A stretch of 64,000 nt of DNA from contig CAZJDL010000001.1 in assembly GCA_964544755.1 (NCBI GenBank), positions 5,512-69,511 on the forward strand. Reading direction: 5' to 3'. The notes beneath the pieces were generated by a model. That model ran no database searches. It had not been told where the DNA came from and saw only the letters and a program-made list of their open reading frames with translations. Shown piece by piece: positions 3,238 through 61,857 of the stretch (the stretch's first letter is position 1; the number at the start of each line of letters is the position of its first letter). Position numbers and translations under genes: made by a program. Source of the stretch: an uncultured Pseudomonadales bacterium (GTDB lineage Bacteria > Pseudomonadota > Gammaproteobacteria > Pseudomonadales > JAUIET01).

Positions 3238-4026
3238 ATGCAGACAATGAGAAAAACGCTATGGGCGACCGTTGCCGGACTTGGACTGATCGTCAGCGCC
3301 GTGTGCACCGCCGATGTCTTACTCGTTGCCGTAGCAAGCAATTTCAAACCCACCGCGCGACTGTTAGCCGATCAATTCCAAACCAACAACGCTATCGACG
3401 TGCAACTCAGCTCTGCTTCGACCGGAGTACTGTTCGCCCAGATTCGCCAGGGTGCGCCGTTCGATGTTTTTCTGGCAGCCGACAGCCGCCATGTGCAAGC
3501 ATTACAGGAAGCAGGACTCATACAGGCTGACACCTTAATGACCTACGCGGTGGGGCAACTGGTGTTGGTGAGCGATAACACAACCACGATAGACAACGAT
3601 CTTGTGCGTACCCTGCAAAACCTGCGCACTAGCAGGCAGCGCATCGCTATCGCCAACCCGTCGACCGCACCTTACGGTCACGCGGCGCGCGAGACGCTAA
3701 AGACACTGGGGTTATGGCAAGACAAGGACAAGCGCTTGATTCGCGCCAATAACGTCGCTCAAAGCCTGCAATATGTTGCGGCGCGAACCGTTAGCGCCGC
3801 TTTTGCGGCCAAGTCGTTACTGCAGCAGTCGAGTTTACCCGACGACCTGGCCATCATCACGGTGCCAGCGAATTTGCATACCCCCATCACACAACAAGCC
3901 GCGGTGCTGCGTCAGTCTGCGCATACCGAACAGGCCAAAGCGTTTATACAATTTTTGCAAACCGACACGGCCCGCACGCTGATTAGCGAAAACGGTTATG
4001 CGCTGCCCGACCGAGCGCTTGAATGA
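3238..4026 (+). CDS. modA: molybdate ABC transporter periplasmic binding protein
   Basis: Signal peptide plus a ModA-like sequence, with its end overlapping the start of modB. Confidence 0.85.
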   Translation: MQTMRKTLWATVAGLGLIVSAVCTADVLLVAVASNFKPTARLLADQFQTNNAIDVQLSSASTGVLFAQIRQGAPFDVFLAADSRHVQALQEAGLIQADTLMTYAVGQLVLVSDNTTTIDNDLVRTLQNLRTSRQRIAIANPSTAPYGHAARETLKTLGLWQDKDKRLIRANNVAQSLQYVAARTVSAAFAAKSLLQQSSLPDDLAIITVPANLHTPITQQAAVLRQSAHTEQAKAFIQFLQTDTARTLISENGYALPDRALE

Positions 4027-4697
4027 CCCCCTCTGATATCAGCGCTATCTGGATCACGTTGAAGCTGGCCTTTATCAGCAGCTTGATCCTGCTGCTTATT
4101 GGCACACCCATCGCCTGGCGCTTGAGCCAATCGCGCTGGCGACTCAAACCCCTCGTTGAAGCGGTCGTGGCGTTGCCGCTGATTCTGCCGCCAACGGTGC
4201 TCGGTTTTTATTTATTGCTCGCATTCGCGCCGGACAGCCCACTCGGGGCAAGCTGGCAACAAATAACCGGCACCAGCCTGGCTTTCAGCTTTAGCGGACT
4301 GGTGATTGGCTCGGTGATTTACTCCCTGCCTTTTGTTGTGCAGCCCTTGCAGGCGGCCTTCGAACAGTTGCCACGCGACCTGCTGGAAGCCGCCGCGACC
4401 ATGGGCGCCACACCGCTGGACCGGTTTGCAACAATCGTGATGCCTATCACCCGACGCAGTTTTATCACCGCTGCCAGCCTTGCCTTCGCGCATACGATAG
4501 GCGAATTTGGCGTCGTATTGATGATAGGCGGCAACATTCCCGGCGTAACCCAGGTCGTGTCGATTGCCTTGTACGATCACGTAGAAACCATGCACTACGC
4601 GCAAGCACATTTACTGGCTGCCGGCTTGCTGCTATTTTCGTTGCTGTTGCTGACCGCGGTTTATTGGGGCAATCGCGGGCCGAGACTGATGCAATGA
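4023..4697 (+). CDS. modB: molybdate ABC transporter permease
   Basis: Multi-TM permease with an EAA loop (EAAATMGATPLDRF). It overlaps both the modA stop and the modC start (ATGA). Confidence 0.88.
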   Translation: MTPSDISAIWITLKLAFISSLILLLIGTPIAWRLSQSRWRLKPLVEAVVALPLILPPTVLGFYLLLAFAPDSPLGASWQQITGTSLAFSFSGLVIGSVIYSLPFVVQPLQAAFEQLPRDLLEAAATMGATPLDRFATIVMPITRRSFITAASLAFAHTIGEFGVVLMIGGNIPGVTQVVSIALYDHVETMHYAQAHLLAAGLLLFSLLLLTAVYWGNRGPRLMQ

Positions 4698-5815
4698 AGC
4701 TGCGCGCAAATATTAAACTGAAACGCGCTCAAGCCACCAGCCACTTCGAGCTGGCCGCTCAGTTTGAGCTGGACGAAAAAGGCATTACGGCACTGTACGG
4801 TCAGTCGGGGGCAGGAAAAACCAGCATTCTACGTTGTATTGCCGGGCTGGAGCGGCAAGGCACTTGCGCCATCAGCTACGGCGACTGCACCTGGCAAGCG
4901 CCGGACAACCGCCTCTTCGCGCCACCCGAACAGCGCAAAATCGCCTACGTGTTCCAGGAGAACCGCTTATTCCCGCATCTCACCGTGCAGGATAATTTAC
5001 GCTACGCATTTCAACGGCGCTTCGCCAGCCACGGCCCGAGTATAGACGACGCCGTCGAATGGTTTGGGCTGGTGGCTCTGCTCGCGCACTACCCGGCGCA
5101 ACTCTCCGGTGGCGAGGCGCGCCGGGTTGCGCTCTCGCGCGCGGCCTTATCGGCACCGCGATTGATGTTATTGGACGAGCCACTCAGCGGCGTCGATCTC
5201 GCCGGCAAAGCGGGCCTGCTGCTGGCGATTCGCCATTTACAGCAACAGCTGGCCTGCCCGATGCTGTATATTAGTCACCATATTGATGAGGTCAGTCAGG
5301 TTGCGGACTATTTAATGCTGTTAGACGCTGGCAAGATTGTTAGCCAGGGATCACTTATTGAGCTGTGTTCGCGCATCGACGCCAGCCTTGCGCATGAGCA
5401 GGACGCGGCTGCAATATTACAGTGCCGCGTCGTGCGGCGCGACACCGACTTTGCGCTAACGGAATTATCGTGCGGCGCGGAGCAACGACTCTTTCTCAGC
5501 GACAGCGAGCTACAAACAGATCAGCTTGTGCGCGTTCGAGTGCCCGCACGCGATGTAAGCATTGCGCTTAGCAAGCCCGCCGACAGCAGCATCCTGAATA
5601 TTTTGCACGCGCACATTGATGCGCTGGAAAATTCGCACAGCAGCAAAGTACTGCTGCGTCTGAAAATCGGCAAGCAGTATTTGCTGGCGCGCATTACCCG
5701 CAAATCGGCACAGCAACTGCAACTGCGCACAGGGCTTGGCGTGTACGCCCAGATAAAAAGCGTGGCGCTGCTTAATCAGGCGCTGGCCATCGATACACGA
5801 GCAAGCCATGAGTGA
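4694..5815 (+). CDS. modC: molybdate ABC transporter ATP-binding protein
   Basis: Walker A (GQSGAGKTS), ABC signature (LSGGEARR), a Walker B (LLDEP) and a C-terminal Mop/TOBE-like tail. The start is set at the ATG overlapping the modB stop. Confidence 0.88.
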   Translation: MKLRANIKLKRAQATSHFELAAQFELDEKGITALYGQSGAGKTSILRCIAGLERQGTCAISYGDCTWQAPDNRLFAPPEQRKIAYVFQENRLFPHLTVQDNLRYAFQRRFASHGPSIDDAVEWFGLVALLAHYPAQLSGGEARRVALSRAALSAPRLMLLDEPLSGVDLAGKAGLLLAIRHLQQQLACPMLYISHHIDEVSQVADYLMLLDAGKIVSQGSLIELCSRIDASLAHEQDAAAILQCRVVRRDTDFALTELSCGAEQRLFLSDSELQTDQLVRVRVPARDVSIALSKPADSSILNILHAHIDALENSHSSKVLLRLKIGKQYLLARITRKSAQQLQLRTGLGVYAQIKSVALLNQALAIDTRASHE

Positions 5816-8265: not shown

Positions 8266-10746
8266 ATGAGCCAACCGCAACATATTTTGCTAGCGCACCC
8301 GGATGAGCACAACCTGTATCGCATCAGGCGAGTCTTAAACGAGCGTGGCTTTCTAAACCTGATCGAGTCCGCAGGCGACCAACATACAATCAATGCGCTC
8401 AACGAATATGCATTTGACGCCGTCGTGGTTAACGTCGAACTGGGCATGCTCGATGCCTGGCGCCTGACACGCTTGATTCGCTCGGGCGCACTGAACACCA
8501 AGGCGAACACGCCAGTATTTATTGTATCAGCAACATTTAGCGAGCAGATCGCGCTGGCGACCGCCAAAGAATTTGAGGTCAACGCGTTTATACCCCTTGA
8601 CCAGGCGCACAAATTGCCGCGCCTGATGGAAGACATGTTTAGCCGCGGCGAAATCGAGCCGCCCAAGACCTCTATTCTCATTATCGAAGACTACGCCGAC
8701 ACCGCCAAGCTGGTTGAGCGCGTGCTAAAAAACCGCTTTGTTATTCAGTGCGCCAACGACGGCGAAGCCGGGCTGGAGGCGTGGAAAGAGGGCCGGCACG
8801 ACATTGTGCTGCTTGACCTGATGCTACCGAAGATGTCGGGCGAAGATGTGCTGCGTGAAATTTTGACCATCAAACCTACCCAATCGGTCATTATGATGAC
8901 CGCCTTCGGCAGCCCGGAGAAAGCCGGTAGTCTCATCGTCGGCGGCGCCGTTGATTTTATTGCCAAGCCGTTTCGCGCTGAACAATTGCGCCACGTTTGT
9001 AATATCGCCGCGCACCGGGAAGACTATATTGTCAGCAACCAGCAGTTCGAAGCGCGGCAGAAAGAACTGGCATCCGAAAAGGAACGTGCGCTGGTCACTC
9101 TCAAGTCGATCGGCGACGGTGTCATTACTACTAACGCCAAGGCCAAGGTGGATTATCTGAATCCGGTGGCCGAGCATCTGACCGGCTGGCTAAACGCGGA
9201 AGCCCACGGCAAGCCACTGGGTGAAATCTTCAAGACCTACCATGAATATTCGCGCGTACCGGCCGTCAGCCCGCTGGAGCGATGCCTGAATGAAAAGCGT
9301 TCAATACATTCCAAATCCAATATTCTGCTGCGCAGCCGGCAGGGCCTCGAGTTGGTGATTGAACATTCTGCTTCACCTATTCGCGACAGCAATAATGAGA
9401 TTGTCGGCGCGGTCATGGTGTTTCAAGACAATACAGAAGCGCGCAATCTTGAGAAGCAGCTGACCTATCATGCCAGTCATGACCCATTAACCGGCTTGAA
9501 GAATCGTCAGGTGTTCGACCAGGAAGTTAGCGTGTCATTGAAAGACAGCCATAGCTCACAAGTAGAACATGCGCTGTGCCATATCGACGTTAACGAATTC
9601 AAAATGATTAACGAAAGCCGTGGCCACGGCGCGGGCGACAAGTTACTACAGGAAGTCGCACAAATACTCATCAACAAAGTGCGCGCCCCTAGCGATGCGA
9701 TTGCCCGTTTGAGCGGCCACGAATTTGGTGTGCTGCTACGCTTTTGTCCGATCGATGCCGCCACGCGAATTTGTGAAAACATTTGCAGGGCGTTTGAAGC
9801 GTTTAATTTCAAAACAGGCCGTACTGAATATCAGATCACCGTGTCGATTGGGATTGCACAAGTCAATCAGGACAGCCTCGACTTCCAGGACGTCTTCGCC
9901 GCCTCGCAAGCCGCCTGCTACAAAGCGAAAAATCGCGGCGGCAACCGGGTGCATGTTTTTTCAGCGAACGATGACGAACTCTTGCAGCGGCGTAGCGAAG
10001 TGCAAGTTGCGTCAGAAATTGTGCAAGCAGAACGTGAGAACCGCTTCCAACTCTACTGCCAAAAAATTAAATCCTTGACCGACCCGGACGAAGTCAGTTT
10101 TGAAGTGTTGTTGCGTATGCGGGGCGAGAATAACGAGCTGATTTCGCCAGCACATTTCTTACCCGCCGCCGAACGCTTTAATTTAACCCCACAAATAGAT
10201 CGCTGGGTCGTGCGCAATGCGTTTCAATGGCTGGCAGACAACAAGAGCAAGCTCGATTCGCTGAGCCACTTTGCGATTAACCTGTCGGGCCTGTCGCTGG
10301 GCGACGAGAATTTTTACGATTATATTGCACAACAATTTACCCGCACCGGCGTACCCGCCGATAAGATTTGCTTCGAGATAACCGAAACCGCCGCGGTAAA
10401 GAACTTTAAACTCGCCGGCAGTTTTATCGACGCCATCCGTGAGCTGGGCTGCCGCTTTGCGCTCGACGATTTTGGCACCGGCATGTCGTCCTTTGCATAC
10501 TTGAAAAAACTGAAGGTCGATTTTCTTAAAATCGACGGCATCTTCGTCAAAGACATTCTGCAAGACCCCATCGACCTCGCGATGGTGCGCTCGATCAACG
10601 ATATTGGTCACGTTTCAGGACTTAAAACGATTGCCGAGTTCGTCGAAAACAAGGCGATTGAAGAAAAACTGCGCGAGGTCGGTGTCGACTATGTGCAAGG
10701 CTACGGCATCGACAAACCGAACCCGATTGATGATACACGCTGTTAA
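8266..10746 (+). CDS. response-regulator-type c-di-GMP protein: pseudo-REC, REC, PAS, degenerate GGDEF, EAL
   Basis: Two receiver-like domains. The first has Asn at the phospho-acceptor position (DAVVVNVEL); the second is canonical (DIVLLDLMLP). A PAS domain follows, then a GGDEF domain with SGHEF in place of GGDEF, and an EAL domain (EVLLR, DDFGTG). Confidence 0.85.
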   Translation: MSQPQHILLAHPDEHNLYRIRRVLNERGFLNLIESAGDQHTINALNEYAFDAVVVNVELGMLDAWRLTRLIRSGALNTKANTPVFIVSATFSEQIALATAKEFEVNAFIPLDQAHKLPRLMEDMFSRGEIEPPKTSILIIEDYADTAKLVERVLKNRFVIQCANDGEAGLEAWKEGRHDIVLLDLMLPKMSGEDVLREILTIKPTQSVIMMTAFGSPEKAGSLIVGGAVDFIAKPFRAEQLRHVCNIAAHREDYIVSNQQFEARQKELASEKERALVTLKSIGDGVITTNAKAKVDYLNPVAEHLTGWLNAEAHGKPLGEIFKTYHEYSRVPAVSPLERCLNEKRSIHSKSNILLRSRQGLELVIEHSASPIRDSNNEIVGAVMVFQDNTEARNLEKQLTYHASHDPLTGLKNRQVFDQEVSVSLKDSHSSQVEHALCHIDVNEFKMINESRGHGAGDKLLQEVAQILINKVRAPSDAIARLSGHEFGVLLRFCPIDAATRICENICRAFEAFNFKTGRTEYQITVSIGIAQVNQDSLDFQDVFAASQAACYKAKNRGGNRVHVFSANDDELLQRRSEVQVASEIVQAERENRFQLYCQKIKSLTDPDEVSFEVLLRMRGENNELISPAHFLPAAERFNLTPQIDRWVVRNAFQWLADNKSKLDSLSHFAINLSGLSLGDENFYDYIAQQFTRTGVPADKICFEITETAAVKNFKLAGSFIDAIRELGCRFALDDFGTGMSSFAYLKKLKVDFLKIDGIFVKDILQDPIDLAMVRSINDIGHVSGLKTIAEFVENKAIEEKLREVGVDYVQGYGIDKPNPIDDTRC

Positions 10747-10747
10747 A

Positions 10748-10781
10748 CCTAGTGCACTGTAACGAATAAACTGCACACTAG
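10748..10781. repeat. 34-bp inverted repeat, left copy (CCTAGTGCACTGTAACGAATAAACTGCACACTAG)
   Basis: It is the exact reverse complement of 16690-16723. It starts 1 nt after the TAA of the upstream gene and ends 13 nt before the stop codon of the last gene of the bracketed operon. Confidence 0.95.
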
Positions 10782-10794
10782 AAACCGCGCGCGA

Positions 10795-11613
10795 CTAGTC
10801 AGTCGGCACTGCGCGGATCGGTTTACCGGTATACTCGATATCGTCGCAGCGCAGTGGCAAGAAGGAGCCCTGCGGGCGATCGATATTATCGACGTAACAG
10901 GCTTCAATACCGGAACTCACAATCGCCGCAGAAACATTTTTTAATTGCTCGGGGCTAAAACCCTGATCCGTACCGAAGGCGGCGACGACGCCATTCATAT
11001 TCATTTGCTCGCCATACTGCGCGCTCAAATATGCTTCGATTTCTACCGCCAGCTTCTCATAGGGGCCGATAGGAAAACCCAGTTCACGCGCGTAAGCCCA
11101 TAGTATTTCCACCCGCTCGTCGCCTTTGACCAGTGGCCGGGCGAAGCCGGTGATATTGGGCCGACCTCTTCTTCGAGAGACTTCAAGCTCCACAATTTCT
11201 TTGACCGGCATTCCTTGCAGGCGCTTCGCGTAGGCGGAATGGAGGAATTCGCAGCCTTTCAAAATAGTGCCGCCGCCGTAGACTTCGGAGTAGGCTGCTT
11301 GGATACCGGCCGCTATCGCGGCTGCGTCCGGGCAATTTGCCTCCCCCCCCAGGGCGCCAATCTGGTTACACCATATTCTGGAGTCAGGCCAACTTTGAAA
11401 AATAAAAACCGCTTCTATCCAGTCGGCAATCTTTCGTTCCGGCATTTTTCCGGTCACATTTTGCACATGAATCTGCATGTAGGAATACTTCCCAATCACG
11501 CCATCCAGCAAATTAAGACCGTACGAAAACGCGCCCTTACCGAGTATCCAGCCGCCCGCGGCGCTGTAAACGTTGTTTCTGCGCTGATCCCAATAGTCGG
11601 TTTTATTCGGCAT
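10795..11613 (-). CDS. divergent citryl-CoA lyase / citrate-synthase-fold protein, paralog B
   Basis: Start set at MPNKTDYW, overlapping the stop of the upstream paralog by 11 nt. Residues line up by eye with the citrate synthase/ATP-citrate-lyase C-terminal module (ITGFARPLVKGDERV versus GFGHRVYKxxDPR; C-terminal LPLRCDDIEY versus RHPWDDISY). Confidence 0.6.
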   Translation of the reverse strand: MPNKTDYWDQRRNNVYSAAGGWILGKGAFSYGLNLLDGVIGKYSYMQIHVQNVTGKMPERKIADWIEAVFIFQSWPDSRIWCNQIGALGGEANCPDAAAIAAGIQAAYSEVYGGGTILKGCEFLHSAYAKRLQGMPVKEIVELEVSRRRGRPNITGFARPLVKGDERVEILWAYARELGFPIGPYEKLAVEIEAYLSAQYGEQMNMNGVVAAFGTDQGFSPEQLKNVSAAIVSSGIEACYVDNIDRPQGSFLPLRCDDIEYTGKPIRAVPTD

Positions 11614-12436
11614 TTTCGGTCTCGATGTGATAGTGATCATCGGCGGGAAACGGCACCGATGTGATCGGTTTGCCGACCAGTTCCATGCCATGCGCCAATA
11701 AGCCAGGCGCCGAACACAACTGGTATAGCCCCGCACCCGTCTTGGGATTAAAGCCGAGGTCACATAACACGGCGGCAAACAGCCCGGTTGGCAGCCAACC
11801 TATATTGGCGTGTCGCAGTCCAGCGACGAAACCGGCTGCCCAATGCATACACCCGCCAGCGCCCGGTAACGCCATCAGTGTGTTGGCGATTTTGCCGGTC
11901 AAGGGGTCGATACCATCAAACAAACGGCCAAAGCCGGGCACGCCTATCTCGCTACCGGGGTCAAGCCGGCTAGCCATGGTTGCGGCAAGCTGTTCCGGAT
12001 CGTCGCGGTTGTTGCGTACAATAAAGCGCATCGTCGGCAATACATCCTGCGCACCGCAATGTTCGCCGGCGAGAATTGACAGCGATATTGGCAATATCAA
12101 GGCGGGATCGGTTTTGCCAACAGCAGCTAACACTGCGGCGCGCGTCGCGGGGTGACGCGGACCCGGCGACATAAAGGCCACCATCAGGCAGCCAAACAGT
12201 TCGGCCTGTGCTTTATTTGGCAGCTCGCCGCGAAACAATAAGTAAACCGTATCCGAGAAACTACGTTTGCGTACCAGGTCAAGCAGATTGTAACCGTGGC
12301 AAAAGGCGTTTTCGGTTAAGTAGCTGTTTTCGGGATCACGTTCTTCAAGCCAGATTTTGGTCACCGTTTTTTTGGTGAAGGACTCGTCGCGTCGTTGAAT
12401 TTTCCGGGCTGGTGGTGCGTCGGCTTCGCTACTCAC
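11603..12436 (-). CDS. divergent citryl-CoA lyase / citrate-synthase-fold protein, paralog A
   Basis: GTG start with GGAG 8 nt upstream. Shows the HGYNLLDL...YLLFRGELP motif typical of citrate synthase N-terminal regions, then LMVAFMSPGPRHPAT, LAGEHCGAQD, VPGFGRLFDGIDPL and APGLLAHGMEL, in the same order as the ACLY/CCL motifs. Confidence 0.6.
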   Translation of the reverse strand: MSSEADAPPARKIQRRDESFTKKTVTKIWLEERDPENSYLTENAFCHGYNLLDLVRKRSFSDTVYLLFRGELPNKAQAELFGCLMVAFMSPGPRHPATRAAVLAAVGKTDPALILPISLSILAGEHCGAQDVLPTMRFIVRNNRDDPEQLAATMASRLDPGSEIGVPGFGRLFDGIDPLTGKIANTLMALPGAGGCMHWAAGFVAGLRHANIGWLPTGLFAAVLCDLGFNPKTGAGLYQLCSAPGLLAHGMELVGKPITSVPFPADDHYHIETENAE

Positions 12437-12455: not shown

Positions 12456-14663
12456 TTATTGGTTCAGACGGTAACTGAACTCGGCGAATATCGCTCTGCC
12501 TTCAAGACGGTAATCACCAGGTATTTCTTCGACCGGGGCGGCACTGGTAGCACCCCTGCTGGGCGCGAAGGCGTCTTTATCAAACACGTTGCGCGCCACG
12601 ATAGCGAATTCCAGGTTCTTGAACAATTTCTTACGGCGTAAAACTACATCAACAAGCGCATAGTCATCAACATCATCGCGCTGGTCCGATGCCGCTCTAT
12701 CTCTATCGGCCACCCAATTCGCGGTGGTACTTAAACTCCAGTCTGGCAGAAAATTCCAGGTCGCGGCCAGATACAACTGCCAGCCCGGCGCGTCTGCCAC
12801 GTGGTCACTGGTTGACCTATCTTCGCTGTGTTGCCACGCATAGTTGCCATCCAAAGAAAGAGAGTCGCTGGCTTTCCAGGAGTATTCAACTTCAAAACCA
12901 TAACCGTCCTGGTCAACTGCATTTTTGGCTTGCAGTACCCCACCCGCTGTTGCAGGCGCTACAAAACGGATCAAGTCCCGCATCCGGTAGGTAAACAGGT
13001 TGAGCTTGATATTCGATGTTGGCGTTGGCAGATAATCGAAGGCAAGTTCGATCGTGTCGATCATTTCGGGGTCTATGTTTTCATCACCGTGCAATACCGG
13101 GTTGGTTTCCGATAGTTCCAGAAAAGAGGGTGCCCGAAACGCCCGGCCGTACAGTAACTTCGAACTCAGGTTATAGCTGGTCGCCCACACCAGGGCCAGC
13201 CGCGGGTTGATTGTGCTGCCAAAGTCAGAATAGTCGTCGAAGCGCACACCGGCGGTAAGGCGCCAGTCATTGGCCAGCGCCCATTCGTCCTGCAAGGATG
13301 CGAACAAAATATTACGCTCACTGTCCTCGACAAACACGCTTTCGAAATTGGACGTATCAGTCAACGTACCATCGACGCTGGTTTCGTTCCCGTCGAGCAC
13401 GCCGGGGCCAAAATTTCTGGTTTCTTTCGGATCGCCTTCCTGGCGCTGGAAGCCCGCGGAAAACCGCAGTTTATGTTTGTCCCAGCCGGAATAATAAGTG
13501 ACAAGCTCTGCTGTGTGCTTTTGTTCCTCCCCACCGGGGTTACCTAAAACGCCATCCGGAAACGCCACCACTCGGGAAGCAGGAGGAAGTGAGGTGGTTA
13601 AACTCCCCGTCTCGTTATCAATCAAGGCAAGCGTTCCAGCCGGCAATAAGGTGTATTTGTTATCTGAGTCGAACAGGCTCAATGAGAGGCTCGTTTCATA
13701 ACGCCAATTTTCCGACAGCTCGTCATTGTAGGCCAGCGAAAAAAGATAATAATCGCCGTTTAGCTCACCGCCGGGATCGAGCGCATGCAAAACGCCATCG
13801 CCGACTCCCGTATCGTTTTGAACCCACGCCAGGAATGACGTTTTCCAGTGTTCGTTGTTTAATGCGATGCGGGCATTCAAAATATCGTAGCGCGTAGCAA
13901 GAGGGCCAGGCGCGTTGGAGGCATTGATGCCAAAAGCGCTGTCCCCGAGTGTTTGCAGGTCTGCATCAACAATACGATCGTCATCGCCGTTGCTTTTTGC
14001 ATATTCCAGGCTGGTGGAGAACTGCCATGTATCACCCACTGCGCCGCCAGCTTGTAGCCAGTAATCTTGCTTGTCGAATGACCCATAGCGTACGCCGGCT
14101 TCAATACCGTCGATGTCCGAAGGGCTTTTTGAGATGACATTGATGACCCCGGCAAACGCGTCGGCGCCAAAAACGGCCGAGCCGGGGCCGCGGATGATCT
14201 CGATGCGCTTGATATTTTGCACCGGCATGGTAAATCCGGTCGGCAGGCCACCGTTGAAGACTTGCCGGAGTGGAACACCGTCGATCAACAGCAAAACCTG
14301 CGGGTTTTGCGCCGTATGAATGCCACGAATGGAATAAACCGAACTGAGTACGTTATTGCTGGAGAGTGACACATGCAAGCCCGGCACCATTTCCAGCGCC
14401 TCTTGCAAATTGGTTGCGCCGCGATTGCGAATGTCGGCCTCGCTAACGACGCTGGCGATAGATGGCGCCAACCTGATCGACTGCTCCGTGCCGGTGGAGA
14501 TGCTGATCGTCTCGTCGTCGCCGTACAGCTCCAGCAAATCGTCTTCGTCAAAATCCGAGTATGCGTGAGCAGGCACAAGGCCGAACAACGCAACAATTCC
14601 CGTTAGCAGGATTTCACGGGTACGCTTGCCGACCGGCAATTGATCATAAAATGAGCGACTCAT
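12456..14663 (-). CDS. TonB-dependent outer-membrane receptor
   Basis: Signal peptide, TonB-box-like DETISISTG, plug domain (IEIIRGPGSAVFGADAFAGVINVISK) and a long beta-barrel. It lies 19 nt upstream of paralog A. Confidence 0.88.
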   Translation of the reverse strand: MSRSFYDQLPVGKRTREILLTGIVALFGLVPAHAYSDFDEDDLLELYGDDETISISTGTEQSIRLAPSIASVVSEADIRNRGATNLQEALEMVPGLHVSLSSNNVLSSVYSIRGIHTAQNPQVLLLIDGVPLRQVFNGGLPTGFTMPVQNIKRIEIIRGPGSAVFGADAFAGVINVISKSPSDIDGIEAGVRYGSFDKQDYWLQAGGAVGDTWQFSTSLEYAKSNGDDDRIVDADLQTLGDSAFGINASNAPGPLATRYDILNARIALNNEHWKTSFLAWVQNDTGVGDGVLHALDPGGELNGDYYLFSLAYNDELSENWRYETSLSLSLFDSDNKYTLLPAGTLALIDNETGSLTTSLPPASRVVAFPDGVLGNPGGEEQKHTAELVTYYSGWDKHKLRFSAGFQRQEGDPKETRNFGPGVLDGNETSVDGTLTDTSNFESVFVEDSERNILFASLQDEWALANDWRLTAGVRFDDYSDFGSTINPRLALVWATSYNLSSKLLYGRAFRAPSFLELSETNPVLHGDENIDPEMIDTIELAFDYLPTPTSNIKLNLFTYRMRDLIRFVAPATAGGVLQAKNAVDQDGYGFEVEYSWKASDSLSLDGNYAWQHSEDRSTSDHVADAPGWQLYLAATWNFLPDWSLSTTANWVADRDRAASDQRDDVDDYALVDVVLRRKKLFKNLEFAIVARNVFDKDAFAPSRGATSAAPVEEIPGDYRLEGRAIFAEFSYRLNQ

Positions 14664-14791: not shown

Positions 14792-16669
14792 TTAGTGCAT
14801 TTTTTGCAATACTCTGAGCCGTTCCCCCATCGGTGGCGCTTCCTCAGGGTCGATATAAACGTCTATAACGCTTGGCTTGCTCGATTTTAACAAGGCGCAG
14901 AAATCGATTTGGCCCAGGTCATCGGGAGTTTTGACGCGAATGCCGTTTGCTCCCATCGCAATGGCCACCGCCGCAAAATCAATCGCCGGCAGGTACTGCC
15001 CGACCTGCTCACCGCCGCCAAGCCGCTGCCCGTGTTTGACCATACCGAGTGATTGATCATTCAACACGATGAATAGCACCGGCAAGTTGTGCTCAACGGC
15101 AACCGTCAGCTCCTGGCCGCTCATCAACATGCTGCCATCGCCGGTGATACACACGGTCGGCGCCTTGCGGCTGCCTAACGAGGTACCTACGCTGGCGCCA
15201 ATCGCCCAGGCCATCGAACCGTAACCCATTGCGGTACGCACGGTGCCGACAAATTTACGTTGCAGATAATGCAGCCCCCAACACCACGCATTACCCGCGT
15301 CCAGCAGAAACCGGGTGTGGTTCGGCAAGACATGGGCCAAATCGTACATCAAACGTTGTGGTTTAAGCGGCACGGCAGCGGATAAGCACAGCTCGGCTTT
15401 GTCATAGGTAAGTTGCGTAGGTAGCAGGTCGGGCGCTAACTTCACCAGCCCTTTAGCTGCAGGCGGCGTTTCGTCAACGGCATGCAATAGCACCGTGGTG
15501 GGTTTGTGTCGCGGTACAACCCGCAGCAATTTACCAAACACCGCCTTGAGATTGCCGAACACGTGCAAATAGGCCATCGGCGACTGCATGAAGTTTTCGG
15601 CACAGCTTTCGACATGGATGAGCCTGTCGTTCAGGATAACGTTGTCCCAACCCGCCGTTGCAATCTCACTCAGCCCGGTGCCTATGGCGATAACGTTCGC
15701 GACGTCGGATCGTTCCAGGGCGGCGCGCGCGCTGGCATGTCCCGCCAAGCCAAAAACGCCGCGGTACTGCGGATGATAAGCATTGACCCATTGCTTGCCG
15801 CCAGGTGTCGCAACGATTAATGCGTTAACCGCTTCGGCGAGTTGAATAATTTCATCGATCGCTTCGCCGCAGCTTTCGCCGATGAGAAACACCGGCCGCT
15901 GCCGCGCGCGCATGGCATTTAACAAGTCTGTTTCCAGTTGCGCGACCGCCCGCTGGTCGATAACCGGCGGCGAGCGCAGCTGAGTCGCAACGTTAAAGAA
16001 GGTGGGCACAGCAACGATCGACCCTTTAAGGATATCTAACGGGATGCTCAAATGCACCGGCCCGCGCGGCTGGCTGAAGGCGCTGATCAACGCGCTGACC
16101 AGCTTGCTTTCCAACTGCGAGGGATGCGACACCAGCGAATTGTAGCGCGTACAGTGCTCGAACATACCCACCACATCGATGGCATCGCTGGACGACTCCT
16201 GCAACCCCAGCCGGCCAAAATTGGGTAAAGCGATTTGCGGCGTGATCACCAACATCGGAATGTGATCGGCATAGGCCGATGCGACACCGGTCAACAAGTT
16301 GGTGCTTCCTGGGCCCGTGGTCGCGCAGCAAACCGCGAGCTTACCGGTTTCACGCGAGTAGCCGTCGGCCATAAAGGCAGCACCGGCTTCATGGCGTGCG
16401 AAAACGGGCGTCGGCCCATGCCGCGAGCGCTTGCTTTTGCGCGCCAGTGCCCGCTGACCATAATTGATCGTGGCCAACCCGGCACCGCGTTGCTTCCTGG
16501 CTATCGCATCAAAAAACGGTTCTATCGCCCCACCTTGAATACCAAAAACATACTCCACACCTATTTGCGCGAGGTACTCGACGATAAGGTCAGAGTAGGT
16601 GTGATTGGTGGCCGCAACGGGGTTTTGCTGAAGTGCATTTTGCAAAGCTTCTACTACATTATCAGTCAT
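14792..16669 (-). CDS. thiamine-diphosphate-dependent enzyme, acetolactate synthase large-subunit-like
   Basis: PYR domain with the catalytic-Glu motif RHEAG, GPGSTNL, and the ThDP-binding GDGS...NDQ motif. GGAG lies 8 nt upstream of the ATG. No ALS small subunit is adjacent. Confidence 0.85.
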   Translation of the reverse strand: MTDNVVEALQNALQQNPVAATNHTYSDLIVEYLAQIGVEYVFGIQGGAIEPFFDAIARKQRGAGLATINYGQRALARKSKRSRHGPTPVFARHEAGAAFMADGYSRETGKLAVCCATTGPGSTNLLTGVASAYADHIPMLVITPQIALPNFGRLGLQESSSDAIDVVGMFEHCTRYNSLVSHPSQLESKLVSALISAFSQPRGPVHLSIPLDILKGSIVAVPTFFNVATQLRSPPVIDQRAVAQLETDLLNAMRARQRPVFLIGESCGEAIDEIIQLAEAVNALIVATPGGKQWVNAYHPQYRGVFGLAGHASARAALERSDVANVIAIGTGLSEIATAGWDNVILNDRLIHVESCAENFMQSPMAYLHVFGNLKAVFGKLLRVVPRHKPTTVLLHAVDETPPAAKGLVKLAPDLLPTQLTYDKAELCLSAAVPLKPQRLMYDLAHVLPNHTRFLLDAGNAWCWGLHYLQRKFVGTVRTAMGYGSMAWAIGASVGTSLGSRKAPTVCITGDGSMLMSGQELTVAVEHNLPVLFIVLNDQSLGMVKHGQRLGGGEQVGQYLPAIDFAAVAIAMGANGIRVKTPDDLGQIDFCALLKSSKPSVIDVYIDPEEAPPMGERLRVLQKMH

Positions 16670-16689
16670 TGGCTGCTCCAGGTAAAAAG

Positions 16690-16723
16690 CTAGTGTGCAG
16701 TTTATTCGTTACAGTGCACTAGG
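16690..16723. repeat. 34-bp inverted repeat, right copy (CTAGTGTGCAGTTTATTCGTTACAGTGCACTAGG)
   Basis: It is the exact reverse complement of 10748-10781 and lies 21 nt upstream of the ThDP-enzyme start codon, next to its Shine-Dalgarno sequence. Confidence 0.95.
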
Positions 16724-17138
16724 GCCTGCTAACACTATTTTCATCATTATTGCCGGAGACCATTTTTCGGCCACCCAGGCAGAAGGAGCGAGCTGTAGTG
16801 ACTCTACATAAGCGATTGATAACGCCGCTGGGCGAGAAATGGTTCCGCCCCTGCGGATTGCGCCTGCTGCTTCTTATCCTCGCCAGCGGCATGCCGCAAG
16901 CTGGCTTATTCTTTTCGTTTAAAATTAATTTTTGGTGACAAACTGCGGCGTGGCCACAACAAGGGCGAGCATGGTATCGTTCGCATTTAGAATAGTCACT
17001 TCGTATCACTAAAGTTTAACAAGATTAAACAATCTACAAGATGGCGGCTAAAAACCATACAAGACAGTCGGCAAGCGCGGAATGCCGAAGTTTTTCACCC
17101 TCAGAATGAGGTAAGTCCCGGATTATTGGCTAGACTGT

Positions 17139-18167
17139 ATGGATACTTTTGTCGTGATGTGCCATCGCGCAGAACCTCCGGCCCCAGGAAAAGCGTTGTT
17201 TGTGAATTGCTTTTGTTCACGCCTTACTCGCATCGTTAAGCATTTAACGTGGTGGAGGCTGCTGTGCTGCGCTTTGTTTTTTGCGTTGACGCAACCTGCG
17301 TTTGCCGCACCGCTGAAATTCGCCGTTGTTGTGCCTGAAACCGCAAGCAAAGCGCAGGTCATTTATGACGAAATCGTACAGGGCCTACGCAGCGCGGAAA
17401 ATGTTGAGCTAACGCTTTACCGGCTCAGCAGCGCCGCGAAGCGCGACGAAGCGGCAGTGCACAAATGGTTAAGCGGGCAAAACGCGAATGCCGTAATCAG
17501 CATCGGCAGGAACGCACATAACCTGGTAAAAAACTTCGCCACTGATATACCGCTTATCGCCGGCGGAATATCCATTTCGCCAAACCACACCTCTGGCGTC
17601 AGCCTGACCGGCGATCCACAGGAGTTTTTCAAAAACCTGGTGCGAATTGCACCCAAGGTCGAACGGATTTTTCTGATTTACAACAATGCGATCAATGGCT
17701 GGTGGGTAGATTCAGCACGCGCCGCCGCCAGTGAACACAACATAGATCTGCAAGCTTTGCAGGCGGAAGACGTAAAGTCAGGCGCCAAATTGTATCAGCG
17801 CGTATTGAACGGCGCGCGTTCGGGAAAGGACGCCATATGGATTCCGTTAGTCAGTATTGTACCGTCAAAAACAGTACTGCCAATGGTACTGAGGAAGGCA
17901 TGGGAAAAAAACCTCGTGGTATTTACCAATAGCGCGGCCCATGCCCGACAAGGCGCTTTATTCTCGATGTATCCCGACAATGTGGCACTGGGTGAACAGT
18001 TGATAGAGCTGGCCATCGAGCAAACGACAACCAGCGGCGCCAACGTCAGGGTGGCGCCGGTCAAAAAATTGAAAACGGCTTTCAACTTACGCACGGCGTC
18101 CCACCTGGGACTGAAATATTCGTTACGGCGGGGCGGTGGTTTTGACCGAATTTATTCAGCACAGTAA
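17139..18167 (+). CDS. periplasmic ABC-type substrate-binding-like protein (likely sensor partner); start uncertain
   Basis: Signal peptide (WWRLLCCALFFALTQPAFA/AP) followed by a binding-protein-like fold. It overlaps the downstream histidine kinase gene by 32 nt. The true start may be an internal GTG or TTG. Confidence 0.55.
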   Translation: MDTFVVMCHRAEPPAPGKALFVNCFCSRLTRIVKHLTWWRLLCCALFFALTQPAFAAPLKFAVVVPETASKAQVIYDEIVQGLRSAENVELTLYRLSSAAKRDEAAVHKWLSGQNANAVISIGRNAHNLVKNFATDIPLIAGGISISPNHTSGVSLTGDPQEFFKNLVRIAPKVERIFLIYNNAINGWWVDSARAAASEHNIDLQALQAEDVKSGAKLYQRVLNGARSGKDAIWIPLVSIVPSKTVLPMVLRKAWEKNLVVFTNSAAHARQGALFSMYPDNVALGEQLIELAIEQTTTSGANVRVAPVKKLKTAFNLRTASHLGLKYSLRRGGGFDRIYSAQ

Positions 18168-19770
18168 TCCGCAACAGCTGACGCAGCAAGCTGTCACTCA
18201 TGAAAAACGCAGCAGCTTTCGACGCCAGCTGTTTCTGATTTTTGCCACTTGCGGGGTCGCTGTCGCGCTCGCCGTGGCAATCGCCTACTCCTATTCCACC
18301 AGTGAATATATTCGCGACTTGTATGTAAGCCAGGCACTGCAGGCGACCCAGAACTTTGCGCAACTAAGCGAGTTGGCGCTACTCCTCGACAGTGGTGAAA
18401 ATGCCGAGGACGCAGCAAAGAGCACCTTGTCATTCCCGTTGATTAAATATGTGTCGATTGTTAGCGGCAATGGAAAAATGCTGTTTGACCAAGGTCAGTG
18501 GCATGGCGAATATCTGCAGCTTGGCAACCAGCGGCCACGTGAACCCGGCGCCGCGCTGATTAGTGAACAGGACAACGCCTGGCACTTTTGGGCGCCGGTT
18601 TTCTCCCAAACTGCCGAGGCGCAAGCTGATGACGGCCTGATTTTGACCGGCGACAAGCAAAAAAGCTACCTTGGCTTTGTTTATGTGGTGCAAGACAAAA
18701 AGGAATTTCTCGCCAGCCAGTACGAAAGCTTTAGGCGCAACGCCATGATCGGTTTAATGTGCGCGGTGGCCTTCATTATCCTGCTGCACTTCGCCATAAA
18801 TCGCTTGCTGGCGCCCATGACCAGACTGGCAGCGGTAATGGACCGCACGCGGCAGGGCGATACCGCCGCGCGCGCTACGCCCGAGGGAGCGGTAGAGCTG
18901 GTCAACATGGCGGAAATCTACAATAGCGTGATGGACAATCTTGCCGATCGTGACGTACGCCTGATGAGGCAAAAAGATGAACTGGAGTCTGAAGTCACGC
19001 TGCGTACGCAGGAACTTGTGCAGGCGCGCGACGAAGCCATTGACGCCAGCCGCCACAAGTCGGAATTTTTGTCTAACATCAGCCATGAGCTGCGCACACC
19101 GCTGCAGGCGATCATGGGCTATTCTGACATTCTGCACGAGAGACTCGAGGACGAAGGCTTCGATGATTTATGCGAAGACACCGAATGCATTACCGACAAC
19201 GCCAACCACCTGTTGAACTTGATAAACAGCATTCTGGACCTCGCAAAAATCGAAGCCGGCCGCATGGATATTCATTTGGCTTATGTCAAAATTAATAACG
19301 TGGTACGCCAGGCTCAGGAAACGATTCTGCCATTGATGCAGAAGAGCGCCAACGAACTGGTTGTGGAGATCGAAGAAACTGACCAGATGATTAAGATCGA
19401 CGAAACCAAGCTACTGCAAATATTACTCAATCTTTTGAGTAACGCCGGCAAGTTTACCCAGATGGGCCGGGTAACGGTCAGCGTGCGGCAAAGCCAGGAC
19501 GAATTAAATATCGAAGTCGCAGATACCGGCATTGGTATGGAGCAGCAACACTTAAATGTGATTTTCGACGCGTTCCGCCAGATTGACGGCAGCGCGACAC
19601 GAGAATTTGAGGGCACGGGTTTGGGCTTATCGATCACGCGGCGCTTCTGCGAGGTGATGGGCGGCTACATCAGCGTGGTCAGTCAGCCCGGTCGTGGCTC
19701 CACCTTCAGCGTGCGTTTTCCGTTGCCAATTCGCGCCAGCGACAATAGTGAAAACATCGACTTGGCTTAG
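18136..19770 (+). CDS. sensor histidine kinase (TM, periplasmic region, HAMP, HisKA, HATPase)
   Basis: H-box (SHELRTPL), N-box (LLNLLSNAGKF), and G-boxes (DTGIGM, GTGLGLSI). No response regulator gene is directly adjacent. Confidence 0.85.
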   Translation: MVLTEFIQHSNPQQLTQQAVTHEKRSSFRRQLFLIFATCGVAVALAVAIAYSYSTSEYIRDLYVSQALQATQNFAQLSELALLLDSGENAEDAAKSTLSFPLIKYVSIVSGNGKMLFDQGQWHGEYLQLGNQRPREPGAALISEQDNAWHFWAPVFSQTAEAQADDGLILTGDKQKSYLGFVYVVQDKKEFLASQYESFRRNAMIGLMCAVAFIILLHFAINRLLAPMTRLAAVMDRTRQGDTAARATPEGAVELVNMAEIYNSVMDNLADRDVRLMRQKDELESEVTLRTQELVQARDEAIDASRHKSEFLSNISHELRTPLQAIMGYSDILHERLEDEGFDDLCEDTECITDNANHLLNLINSILDLAKIEAGRMDIHLAYVKINNVVRQAQETILPLMQKSANELVVEIEETDQMIKIDETKLLQILLNLLSNAGKFTQMGRVTVSVRQSQDELNIEVADTGIGMEQQHLNVIFDAFRQIDGSATREFEGTGLGLSITRRFCEVMGGYISVVSQPGRGSTFSVRFPLPIRASDNSENIDLA

Positions 19771-61597: not shown

Positions 61598-61706
61598 TTA
61601 AGGTTTAGGGTTGAATATTTTATAATCATGTTGATTGCGCGCTCGATTCTATAATAGCGCTTTTTACAGACTTCCCGCGCCAGTTGCTATACCATTGCCA
61701 GAATTG

Positions 61707-61796
61707 ACCTAAGGGGTGGCTCAGCCTGAGATACCGGCGGCATTGCTGCGGTGAACCCTCGAACCTGATCCGGATAATACCGGCGTAGGAATAGGC
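61707..61796 (+). promoter_or_regulatory. TPP (THI-box) riboswitch
   Basis: Conserved aptamer elements occur in the canonical order: GGGGTG, CTGAGA, ACCC, then AACCTGATCCGGATAATACCGGCGTAGGAA, closed by a CCTA/TAGG P1 helix. It lies 60 nt upstream of the receptor ATG. A possible SD-sequestering helix (GGTCTCT...AGAGAACC) follows. Confidence 0.85.
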
Positions 61797-61857
61797 GACA
61801 CCATACTTATCTCCGCGCCGTACACCGGGTCTCTTTTGTTGTTGACGAGAGAGAACC

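Follow-up and report, generated by a model that had tools for sequence, protein, structure and literature searches.

The window analyzed here, a 64,000-nt stretch of contig CAZJDL010000001.1 from an uncultured Pseudomonadales bacterium, contains two adjacent genes, designated A and B, whose products are relatives of citryl-coenzyme A (CoA) lyase (CCL) and citrate synthase in which the classic active site has been replaced. A preliminary description of the window had reported a pair of open reading frames (ORFs) overlapping by 11 nt, and both were found where it placed them, on the minus strand (Table 1). The sequence GAAAATGCCGAATAA holds both the stop codon of A and the ATG of B, implying that translation of the two genes is probably coupled; an alternative ATG of B lies 27 nt upstream and would give a 38-nt overlap with A. 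A gene for a thiamine diphosphate (ThDP)-dependent enzyme stands first in the series, followed by a gene for a TonB-dependent receptor, A and B. The receptor stop codon is 19 nt from the start of A, an AGGAG is located 8 nt upstream of the A GTG, and a terminator-like site is present directly 3' of B. On the basis of these short spacings and the terminator-like site, the four genes look like a single operon. Two long plus-strand ORFs opposite A and B (11215-11664 and 11661-12155) are probably not genes; the one at 11661-12155 is repeated in 17 related loci, apparently as no more than a mirror image of the conserved A. Export of A by the twin-arginine (Tat) or Sec route was considered on account of a conserved N-terminal RRxxxF, but no hydrophobic region follows it and the protein was judged cytoplasmic.

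Table 1. Features of the A/B locus, in window coordinates.
Feature	Coordinates	Strand	Basis
REC-PAS-GGDEF-EAL response regulator (cyclic di-GMP, c-di-GMP, turnover), convergent with B	8266..10746	+	domain matches, synteny
Inverted repeat, left arm, 34 nt, perfect	10748..10781		repeat search
Subunit B, distant paralog of A, 272 aa	10795..11613	-	ORF call, profile and fold matches
A stop codon/B start codon overlap, 11 nt	11603..11613	-	sequence GAAAATGCCGAATAA
Subunit A, CCL/citrate-synthase-fold protein, 277 aa, GTG start	11603..12436	-	ORF call, profile and fold matches
TonB-dependent outer-membrane receptor, Plug and beta-barrel, no signaling extension	12456..14663	-	domain matches
ThDP-dependent carboligase, acetolactate-synthase superfamily	14792..16669	-	domain and structure matches
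Inverted repeat, right arm, ends 20 nt upstream of the ThDP enzyme ATG	16690..16723		repeat search
Periplasmic solute-binding protein, PF04392, signal peptide; divergent from the operon, overlaps the kinase gene	17139..18167	+	domain match, synteny
Sensor histidine kinase, periplasmic domain between two transmembrane segments	18136..19770	+	domain matches

Homology of both proteins to the citrate synthase/CCL fold, which had been proposed by eye, was borne out by profile, sequence and structure comparisons alike. Pfam PF00285 matches A at 27.0 bits, equal to its gathering cut-off and over residues 42-88 only (47 residues), and no match of this model to B was found at any score. NCBIfam models gave near full-length alignments, A with citryl-CoA lyase NF004869 (86 bits, cut-off 212) and B with NF004868 (48 bits, cut-off 193). 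These PRK06224 subfamilies are the nearest curated models, yet A and B lie outside all six of them, NF004864-NF004869, scoring below every cut-off (193-261 bits). Among solved structures the only strong match to A and B was the CCL of Hydrogenobacter thermophilus, PDB 6hxp (E=1e-15 to A, 1e-6 to B and 1e-14 to the B-family profile), with citrate synthase matches to A being weaker. AlphaFold2 (AF2) models of A and B (pLDDT 81 and 79, respectively) both display a citrate-synthase-type fold: Foldseek searches against the PDB matched them to CCL, ATP-citrate lyase and citrate synthase structures, with 6hxp best (E=2e-11 for A, 3e-9 for B) and next the ATP-citrate lyases of bacteria, archaea and human, matched in their CCL modules. 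Judged by hhalign (probability 96.9%, 22% identity), A and B are old, distant paralogs.

The H. thermophilus CCL and the CCL module of ATP-citrate lyase have the same short fold of ~260-280 aa. Where these consist of a single subunit type, however, two diverged subunits are encoded here, as stand-alone proteins of ~275 aa with no ASH-module fusion of the kind found in ATP-citrate lyase; the only fusions found were A-B and B-B. Citrate and 2-methylcitrate synthases (PF00285) belong to the same superfamily, and A has kept their N-terminal motif GY.L..L......F.....LL..GELP well, but A and B are ~100 residues shorter and their catalytic and oxaloacetate-binding residues are replaced. Databases label the homologues as nothing more specific than "citrate synthase" or "hypothetical protein." No characterized member of the A or B family was found, and a literature search found no paper on the cluster; together with scores far under every NCBIfam cut-off, this agrees with the preliminary description, in which the arrangement could be assigned to no characterized pathway.

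To map residues, CCL was aligned by hmmalign to the hidden Markov model of each family (121 sequences per family); an alignment made with mafft --add was out of register with CCL and was discarded in favor of hmmalign. At the position of CCL H64, proline is found in 120 of 121 A sequences, while H139 is represented by S, N, R or C and never by H, and D189 by T in 103 of 121. B has P or S in place of H64, a deletion at H139, and N at D189 in 104 of 121 sequences. The His/His/Asp triad is thus kept in 0 of 242 sequences (121 A and 121 B), so that the triad loss first noticed in the two window proteins extends throughout both families, and the motif pairings that had been made by eye (MSPGP, GRL and PTG in A, GFARPL and NMNG in B) agree with the hmmalign mapping.

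Genuine citrate synthases have been verified by residues that include the catalytic His, His and Asp (Escherichia coli H264, H305, D362) as well as oxaloacetate-binding arginines (PMC13147460). The oxaloacetate-binding arginines of the E. coli enzyme are R314, R387 and R407. In A, hydrophobic or small residues occupy the positions of CCL R148 (L, M or I) and R214 (S, C or A), and B carries V at R214, a position therefore lost in both families. B R159 and R167, which correspond to CCL R140 and R148, are retained in 121 of 121 sequences, and a K/R-P motif with K/R246 is also retained; all of these match positions that bind carboxylate. We take the motifs of CCL and citrate synthase to be equivalent (e.g., CCL R214 and citrate synthase R387). 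On this assumption, A has L, M or I at R314 and S, C or A at R387, and B keeps R314 (as R167) and the K/R-P motif of the R407 region and has V at R387. The PG(Y/F)G loop recognizes the CoA adenine in citrate synthases, and A retains it as PGFG in 117-121 of 121 sequences. CCL thereby shares this loop with A, and two arginines and the K/R-P motif with B.

These findings bear on the possibility that A and B are ordinary citrate synthase or CCL subunits, as their database names imply. While sources do call the homologues "citrate synthase," and A just reaches the PF00285 gathering score over its 47 residues, all 242 sequences are devoid of the triad, the equivalent of CCL R214 is gone from both families, and 86 and 48 bits are far under the NCBIfam cut-offs. 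Succinyl-CoA-synthetase-like (citryl-CoA synthetase) genes were found neither in the window neighborhood nor among the recurrent gene families of 83 related loci. An ordinary function of either kind is, from these comparisons, effectively excluded.

The replaced positions are not decaying, as strict conservation is seen exactly there in both families. Strictly conserved motifs of A are NPGPRHPATRAA, PGFG, GWLxTGxxAAxxxDLGF and APGLxAHGxExxxKP, and those of B are SWPDPRIWCNQIGALGG, SWPDPRIWCN, GxARPxxKGDER, ExMNxNG, SGVTACY and FLPLRCxDIxYxG. Common to A and B is a P-x-P-R loop at the place of the first catalytic His, which suggests that the rewiring of the active site predates the A/B split. 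An Fe-S or cysteine-nucleophile site (invariant C82, C239 and C256 of B; C46 of A) was considered and rejected, as most of these cysteines are absent from divergent A-B fusions.

Fusions of this kind were recovered when 1.84 billion representative proteins were searched by profile. They include P0254, a 574-aa protein consisting of A and then B, whose gene lies within a cluster of ThDP enzyme, receptor, short-chain dehydrogenase/reductase (SDR), kinase and binding-protein genes; P0282, a 516-aa protein present on five contigs from different samples; and the additional fusions P0297 and P0320. Where the two genes are separate, an overlap of 4-44 nt is kept in about 50 of 53 loci. Citrate synthases and CCL form their active sites across the subunit interface. 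Because of this, and because the gene overlap is conserved and natural A-B fusions exist, A and B probably form a heteromer, most naturally an A-B pseudo-dimer, as the preliminary description had also supposed of the heteromer. One further protein, P0242 (523 aa), is a tandem B-B fusion with no A-type half, and other subunit combinations therefore exist in the family.

Homologues in the metagenome protein collection number more than 1,000 for A and nearly 600 for B, with identities to the query of ~50% save for a handful of close relatives. One scan, made with two peptide patterns, identified relatives in no fewer than 182 GTDB species representatives, and the B family comprises 113 representatives at E<=1e-30 (50% clustering). 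Carriers include Cellvibrio, Neptuniibacter, Tenderia, Chromatiales, Gallionellaceae and Sideroxydans, as well as Desulfuromonadales (including Malonomonas rubra) and Desulfobulbaceae (including Electrothrix), and synteny spans the Gamma- and Betaproteobacteria, Desulfuromonadales and Desulfobulbales. Gene families were clustered over 83 loci, and 48 loci counted as well covered, each flank measuring 7.5 kb or more. In these 48, B is found in 44 (a weaker tblastn match in L039 suggests a 45th), the receptor is adjacent in 45 and the ThDP enzyme is present in 43. Receptor adjacency, together with the 19-nt gap and its AGGAG, supports the earlier proposal that A and B are co-transcribed with the receptor, and co-occurrence of the pair with both neighbors, which had been proposed as a check, was likewise observed: B, receptor and ThDP enzyme stand together in 42 of the 48 loci.

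Regulatory genes recur alongside the enzymes: of the well-covered loci, 37 encode a GGDEF-EAL-type regulator and 31 a binding protein of the PF04392 family. The sensor part varies by lineage (PF04392, SBP_bac_5, PhnD-like, YfiR-like or sCache), and the logic of periplasmic sensor, kinase and c-di-GMP turnover is kept despite this variation. In most loci the enzymes are found together with a binding protein and a kinase, and this also holds for a divergent groundwater lineage. Here an SBP_bac_5 protein and a dCache-GAF-PAS kinase are encoded with a ThDP enzyme, an A-B fusion, a protein of 124 aa and additional kinases and regulators; no receptor was seen on the contigs recovered from this lineage.

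The A-B fusion gene of this groundwater lineage extends into the start of the large dCache-GAF-PAS sensor kinase gene. Such an arrangement would suit a non-catalytic A/B pair that serves as a ligand-binding or scaffold module, sensing a metabolite or organizing or regulating the ThDP enzyme or the kinase. That A is without any of the three catalytic residues and has lost the majority of the oxaloacetate-binding arginines also speaks for such a pseudoenzyme, as does the constant association of the cluster with signaling proteins, and the CCL module of ATP-citrate lyase may offer an analogy in its comparable role as an oligomerization hub. The replaced positions are nevertheless strictly conserved polar or charged residues that show no drift, two distinct subunits are still ~50% identical across phyla, the CoA-adenine loop is kept in A, and A/B is consistently accompanied by a ThDP enzyme and by tailoring enzymes. 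We regard a pseudoenzyme as unlikely; the conserved polar residues at the old active site, the CoA loop and the biosynthesis-type neighbors favor a putative enzyme over a binding module.

The tailoring enzymes are among several lineage-specific additions to the cluster, namely an SDR (17 loci), a PF00891 O-methyltransferase, a sulfotransferase with adenosine phosphosulfate (APS) kinase, a condensation-domain protein and a cytochrome P450. Added genes of this sort would fit a pattern typical of small-molecule biosynthetic clusters. They also bear on a catabolic interpretation, by which the receptor would import a compound, the binding protein and kinase would sense it, and the ThDP enzyme and A/B would act as lyases to degrade it via CoA esters. 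CCL and several ThDP enzymes are indeed carbon-carbon lyases, the receptor gene is directly upstream of A/B in the same apparent operon, and a solo A is located behind a beta-oxidation-type operon in one lineage. However, the O-methyltransferase, sulfotransferase, P450 and condensation-domain protein are tailoring enzymes, no inner-membrane importer is conserved among the gene families of these loci, and the regulatory output is c-di-GMP turnover and not a DNA-binding regulator. In addition, the groundwater lineage retains ThDP enzyme, fusion, binding protein and kinases where no receptor was seen on its recovered contigs. A catabolic module thus seems improbable to us.

Comparison with solved structures placed the ThDP enzyme nearest to BbmA and CsmA (PDB 8x3x and 8x3z), at E=2e-72 versus 6e-44 for acetolactate synthase; no paper describing BbmA or CsmA was found in a literature search. 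CsmA (8x3z) matches proteins of Chryseomicrobium (Firmicutes), and an 83%-identical CsmA homologue is translationally coupled to a GAF-PAS-GGDEF-EAL gene (L090 5212-9635, Chryseomicrobium sp., CP151997), although that locus contains no citrate synthase-like genes and no receptor. This coupling suggests that the ThDP subfamily is linked to c-di-GMP signaling beyond the Proteobacteria, in Firmicutes as well. For the receptor, PDB matches were consulted as a guide to its substrate and amounted to no more than a general plug-domain resemblance to CirA, BtuB and PqqU. Riboswitch control of the operon was considered and rejected, the sole Rfam match being a thiamine pyrophosphate (TPP) riboswitch 45 kb away (RF00059, 67 bits, 61702-61808, plus strand) that is apparently unrelated to the cluster. 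Upstream of the cluster and outside the conserved module, a three-gene ATP-binding cassette (ABC) transporter operon at 3238-5815 (plus strand) encodes a periplasmic binding protein, a permease and an ATPase. Its counterparts in the related contig L092 match SBP_bac_11, BPD_transp_1 and ABC_tran with TOBE, and the transporter is therefore probably of the molybdate type (modABC-like).

The arms of the inverted repeat lie 5,908 nt apart and enclose precisely the four-gene operon of ThDP enzyme, receptor, A and B. Two copies of this sequence occur in 64 kb versus zero expected by chance, and no further copies were found in the window or in a metagenome scan. Contig L092 (95% protein identity in B) is without 29 nt of the left arm, and the extra 29 nt in the window are flanked by a duplicated CTAG. 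Hairpin folding of either arm was no better than that of shuffled sequence, and no recombinase gene was found near the repeat. The arms could make the 5' and 3' untranslated regions of the operon mRNA complementary to one another, or could mark an invertible or mobile segment.

Our preferred reading, which we hold tentatively and at somewhat less than an even chance, is that an A/B heteromer and the ThDP carboligase make an extracellular metabolite that is re-imported and sensed, thereby setting c-di-GMP levels. Homology, triad loss, the new motifs, the overlapping and fused genes and the synteny are observed, and from them we infer catalysis by the pair, its substrates, a biosynthetic pathway and a signaling loop as follows. 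An ancestor of A and B would have lost the His/His/Asp machinery before the two diverged, and the replacement site would consist of the P-x-P-R loop in both subunits with the ARP...GDER and E-x-M-N-x-N-G motifs of B. Because the CoA-adenine loop is kept in A and the carboxylate arginines in B, the heteromer is predicted most likely still to bind an acyl-CoA and a carboxylated partner, with a chemistry that would differ from the condensation or cleavage of citrate or citryl-CoA. Together with the CsmA/BbmA-type carboligase, A/B would form the two-enzyme core of the module, its product being a small extracellular metabolite, possibly a signal or a metallophore. The TonB-dependent receptor would readmit this metabolite to the periplasm, where the solute-binding protein would bind it and the sensor kinase would read it, and the kinase would then drive the REC-PAS-GGDEF-EAL regulator.

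Known systems offer partial parallels to this arrangement. LuxS with LuxP-LuxQ, and CqsA-CqsS, are similar by analogy only, as small-molecule enzymes beside a binding protein or kinase; the enzyme families are unrelated. Siderophore loci, again by analogy only, have a dedicated TonB-dependent receptor by their enzyme genes, as is seen here in 45 of 48 loci. Of the siderophore hallmarks looked for, neither a nonribosomal peptide synthetase (NRPS) or NRPS-independent siderophore (NIS) synthetase nor an inner-membrane importer is conserved in the cluster. Classic iron regulation was also rejected for the window, where the best Fur-box match has 7/19 mismatches and does not rise above background. 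In contrast to both autoinducer and siderophore loci, the output here is a GGDEF-EAL regulator, and in contrast to CCL, the genes lie among those for a receptor, a ThDP enzyme and c-di-GMP signaling and not in the setting of the reductive tricarboxylic acid (TCA) cycle.

Several observations weigh against the biosynthetic reading we prefer. No exporter is conserved in the cluster, and most loci contain only two candidate enzymes. The three invariant cysteines of B are not kept in the divergent A-B fusions, making part of the proposed new active site clade-specific. One gammaproteobacterial lineage carries A with no nearby B, receptor or ThDP gene (L014, L017, L024, L026 and L041; e.g., L017 845-12593), in vent and sediment samples. 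There, the solo A is the last gene of a fadE-fadA-fadB-fadD-like operon, whose other genes specify acyl-CoA dehydrogenase, thiolase, FadB-like and acyl-CoA ligase proteins, and its position would fit acyl-CoA handling and not an obligate unit of A/B with the ThDP enzyme. The lineage is a single tight clade with 93% identity among its members; a small unannotated gene (151 aa) after the solo A was considered as a cryptic B and rejected, as hhalign found no similarity. Lastly, the conspecific contig L093 (98.4-98.6% nt identity) has a ~1.6-kb deletion in the ThDP region (L093 5212-5763 versus window 15338-16962), which removes the N-terminal two-thirds of the ThDP enzyme, the region upstream and the right repeat arm. 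L093 carries intact genes for the receptor, A and B, and the contig stops inside the left repeat arm.

A more specific version of the biosynthetic reading is that the locus is a self-signaling system, with the ThDP carboligase and an A/B heterodimer making a signal from a 2-oxoacid and an acyl-CoA, the receptor as the sole gate for its return to the periplasm, the binding protein and kinase together reading it, and c-di-GMP as the output. We consider this conceivable if doubtful. If true, it would be a self-signaling system of a previously unrecognized kind with a new class of extracellular signal, and would bring c-di-GMP control in sediment and biofilm bacteria such as iron oxidizers, cable bacteria, Desulfuromonadales and Cellvibrio under its influence.

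We conclude that A and B represent a large uncharacterized branch of the citrate synthase/CCL superfamily in which the classic active site is replaced, not lost, and that they would offer a clean case of a central-metabolism fold gaining new chemistry as a two-subunit heteromer. Naming such proteins "citrate synthase" or "citryl-CoA lyase" could plausibly mislead predictions of the reductive or reverse-oxidative TCA cycle, with autotrophic carriers such as Tenderia, Gallionellaceae and Desulfobulbaceae at risk. The conserved link between ThDP enzyme, A/B, receptor, sensor and GGDEF-EAL regulator provides a testable hypothesis, which predicts an extracellular metabolite controlling c-di-GMP. 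The cluster is conserved and uncharacterized, its carriers are environmentally important and several are culturable, and the function of the module is a good experimental target.

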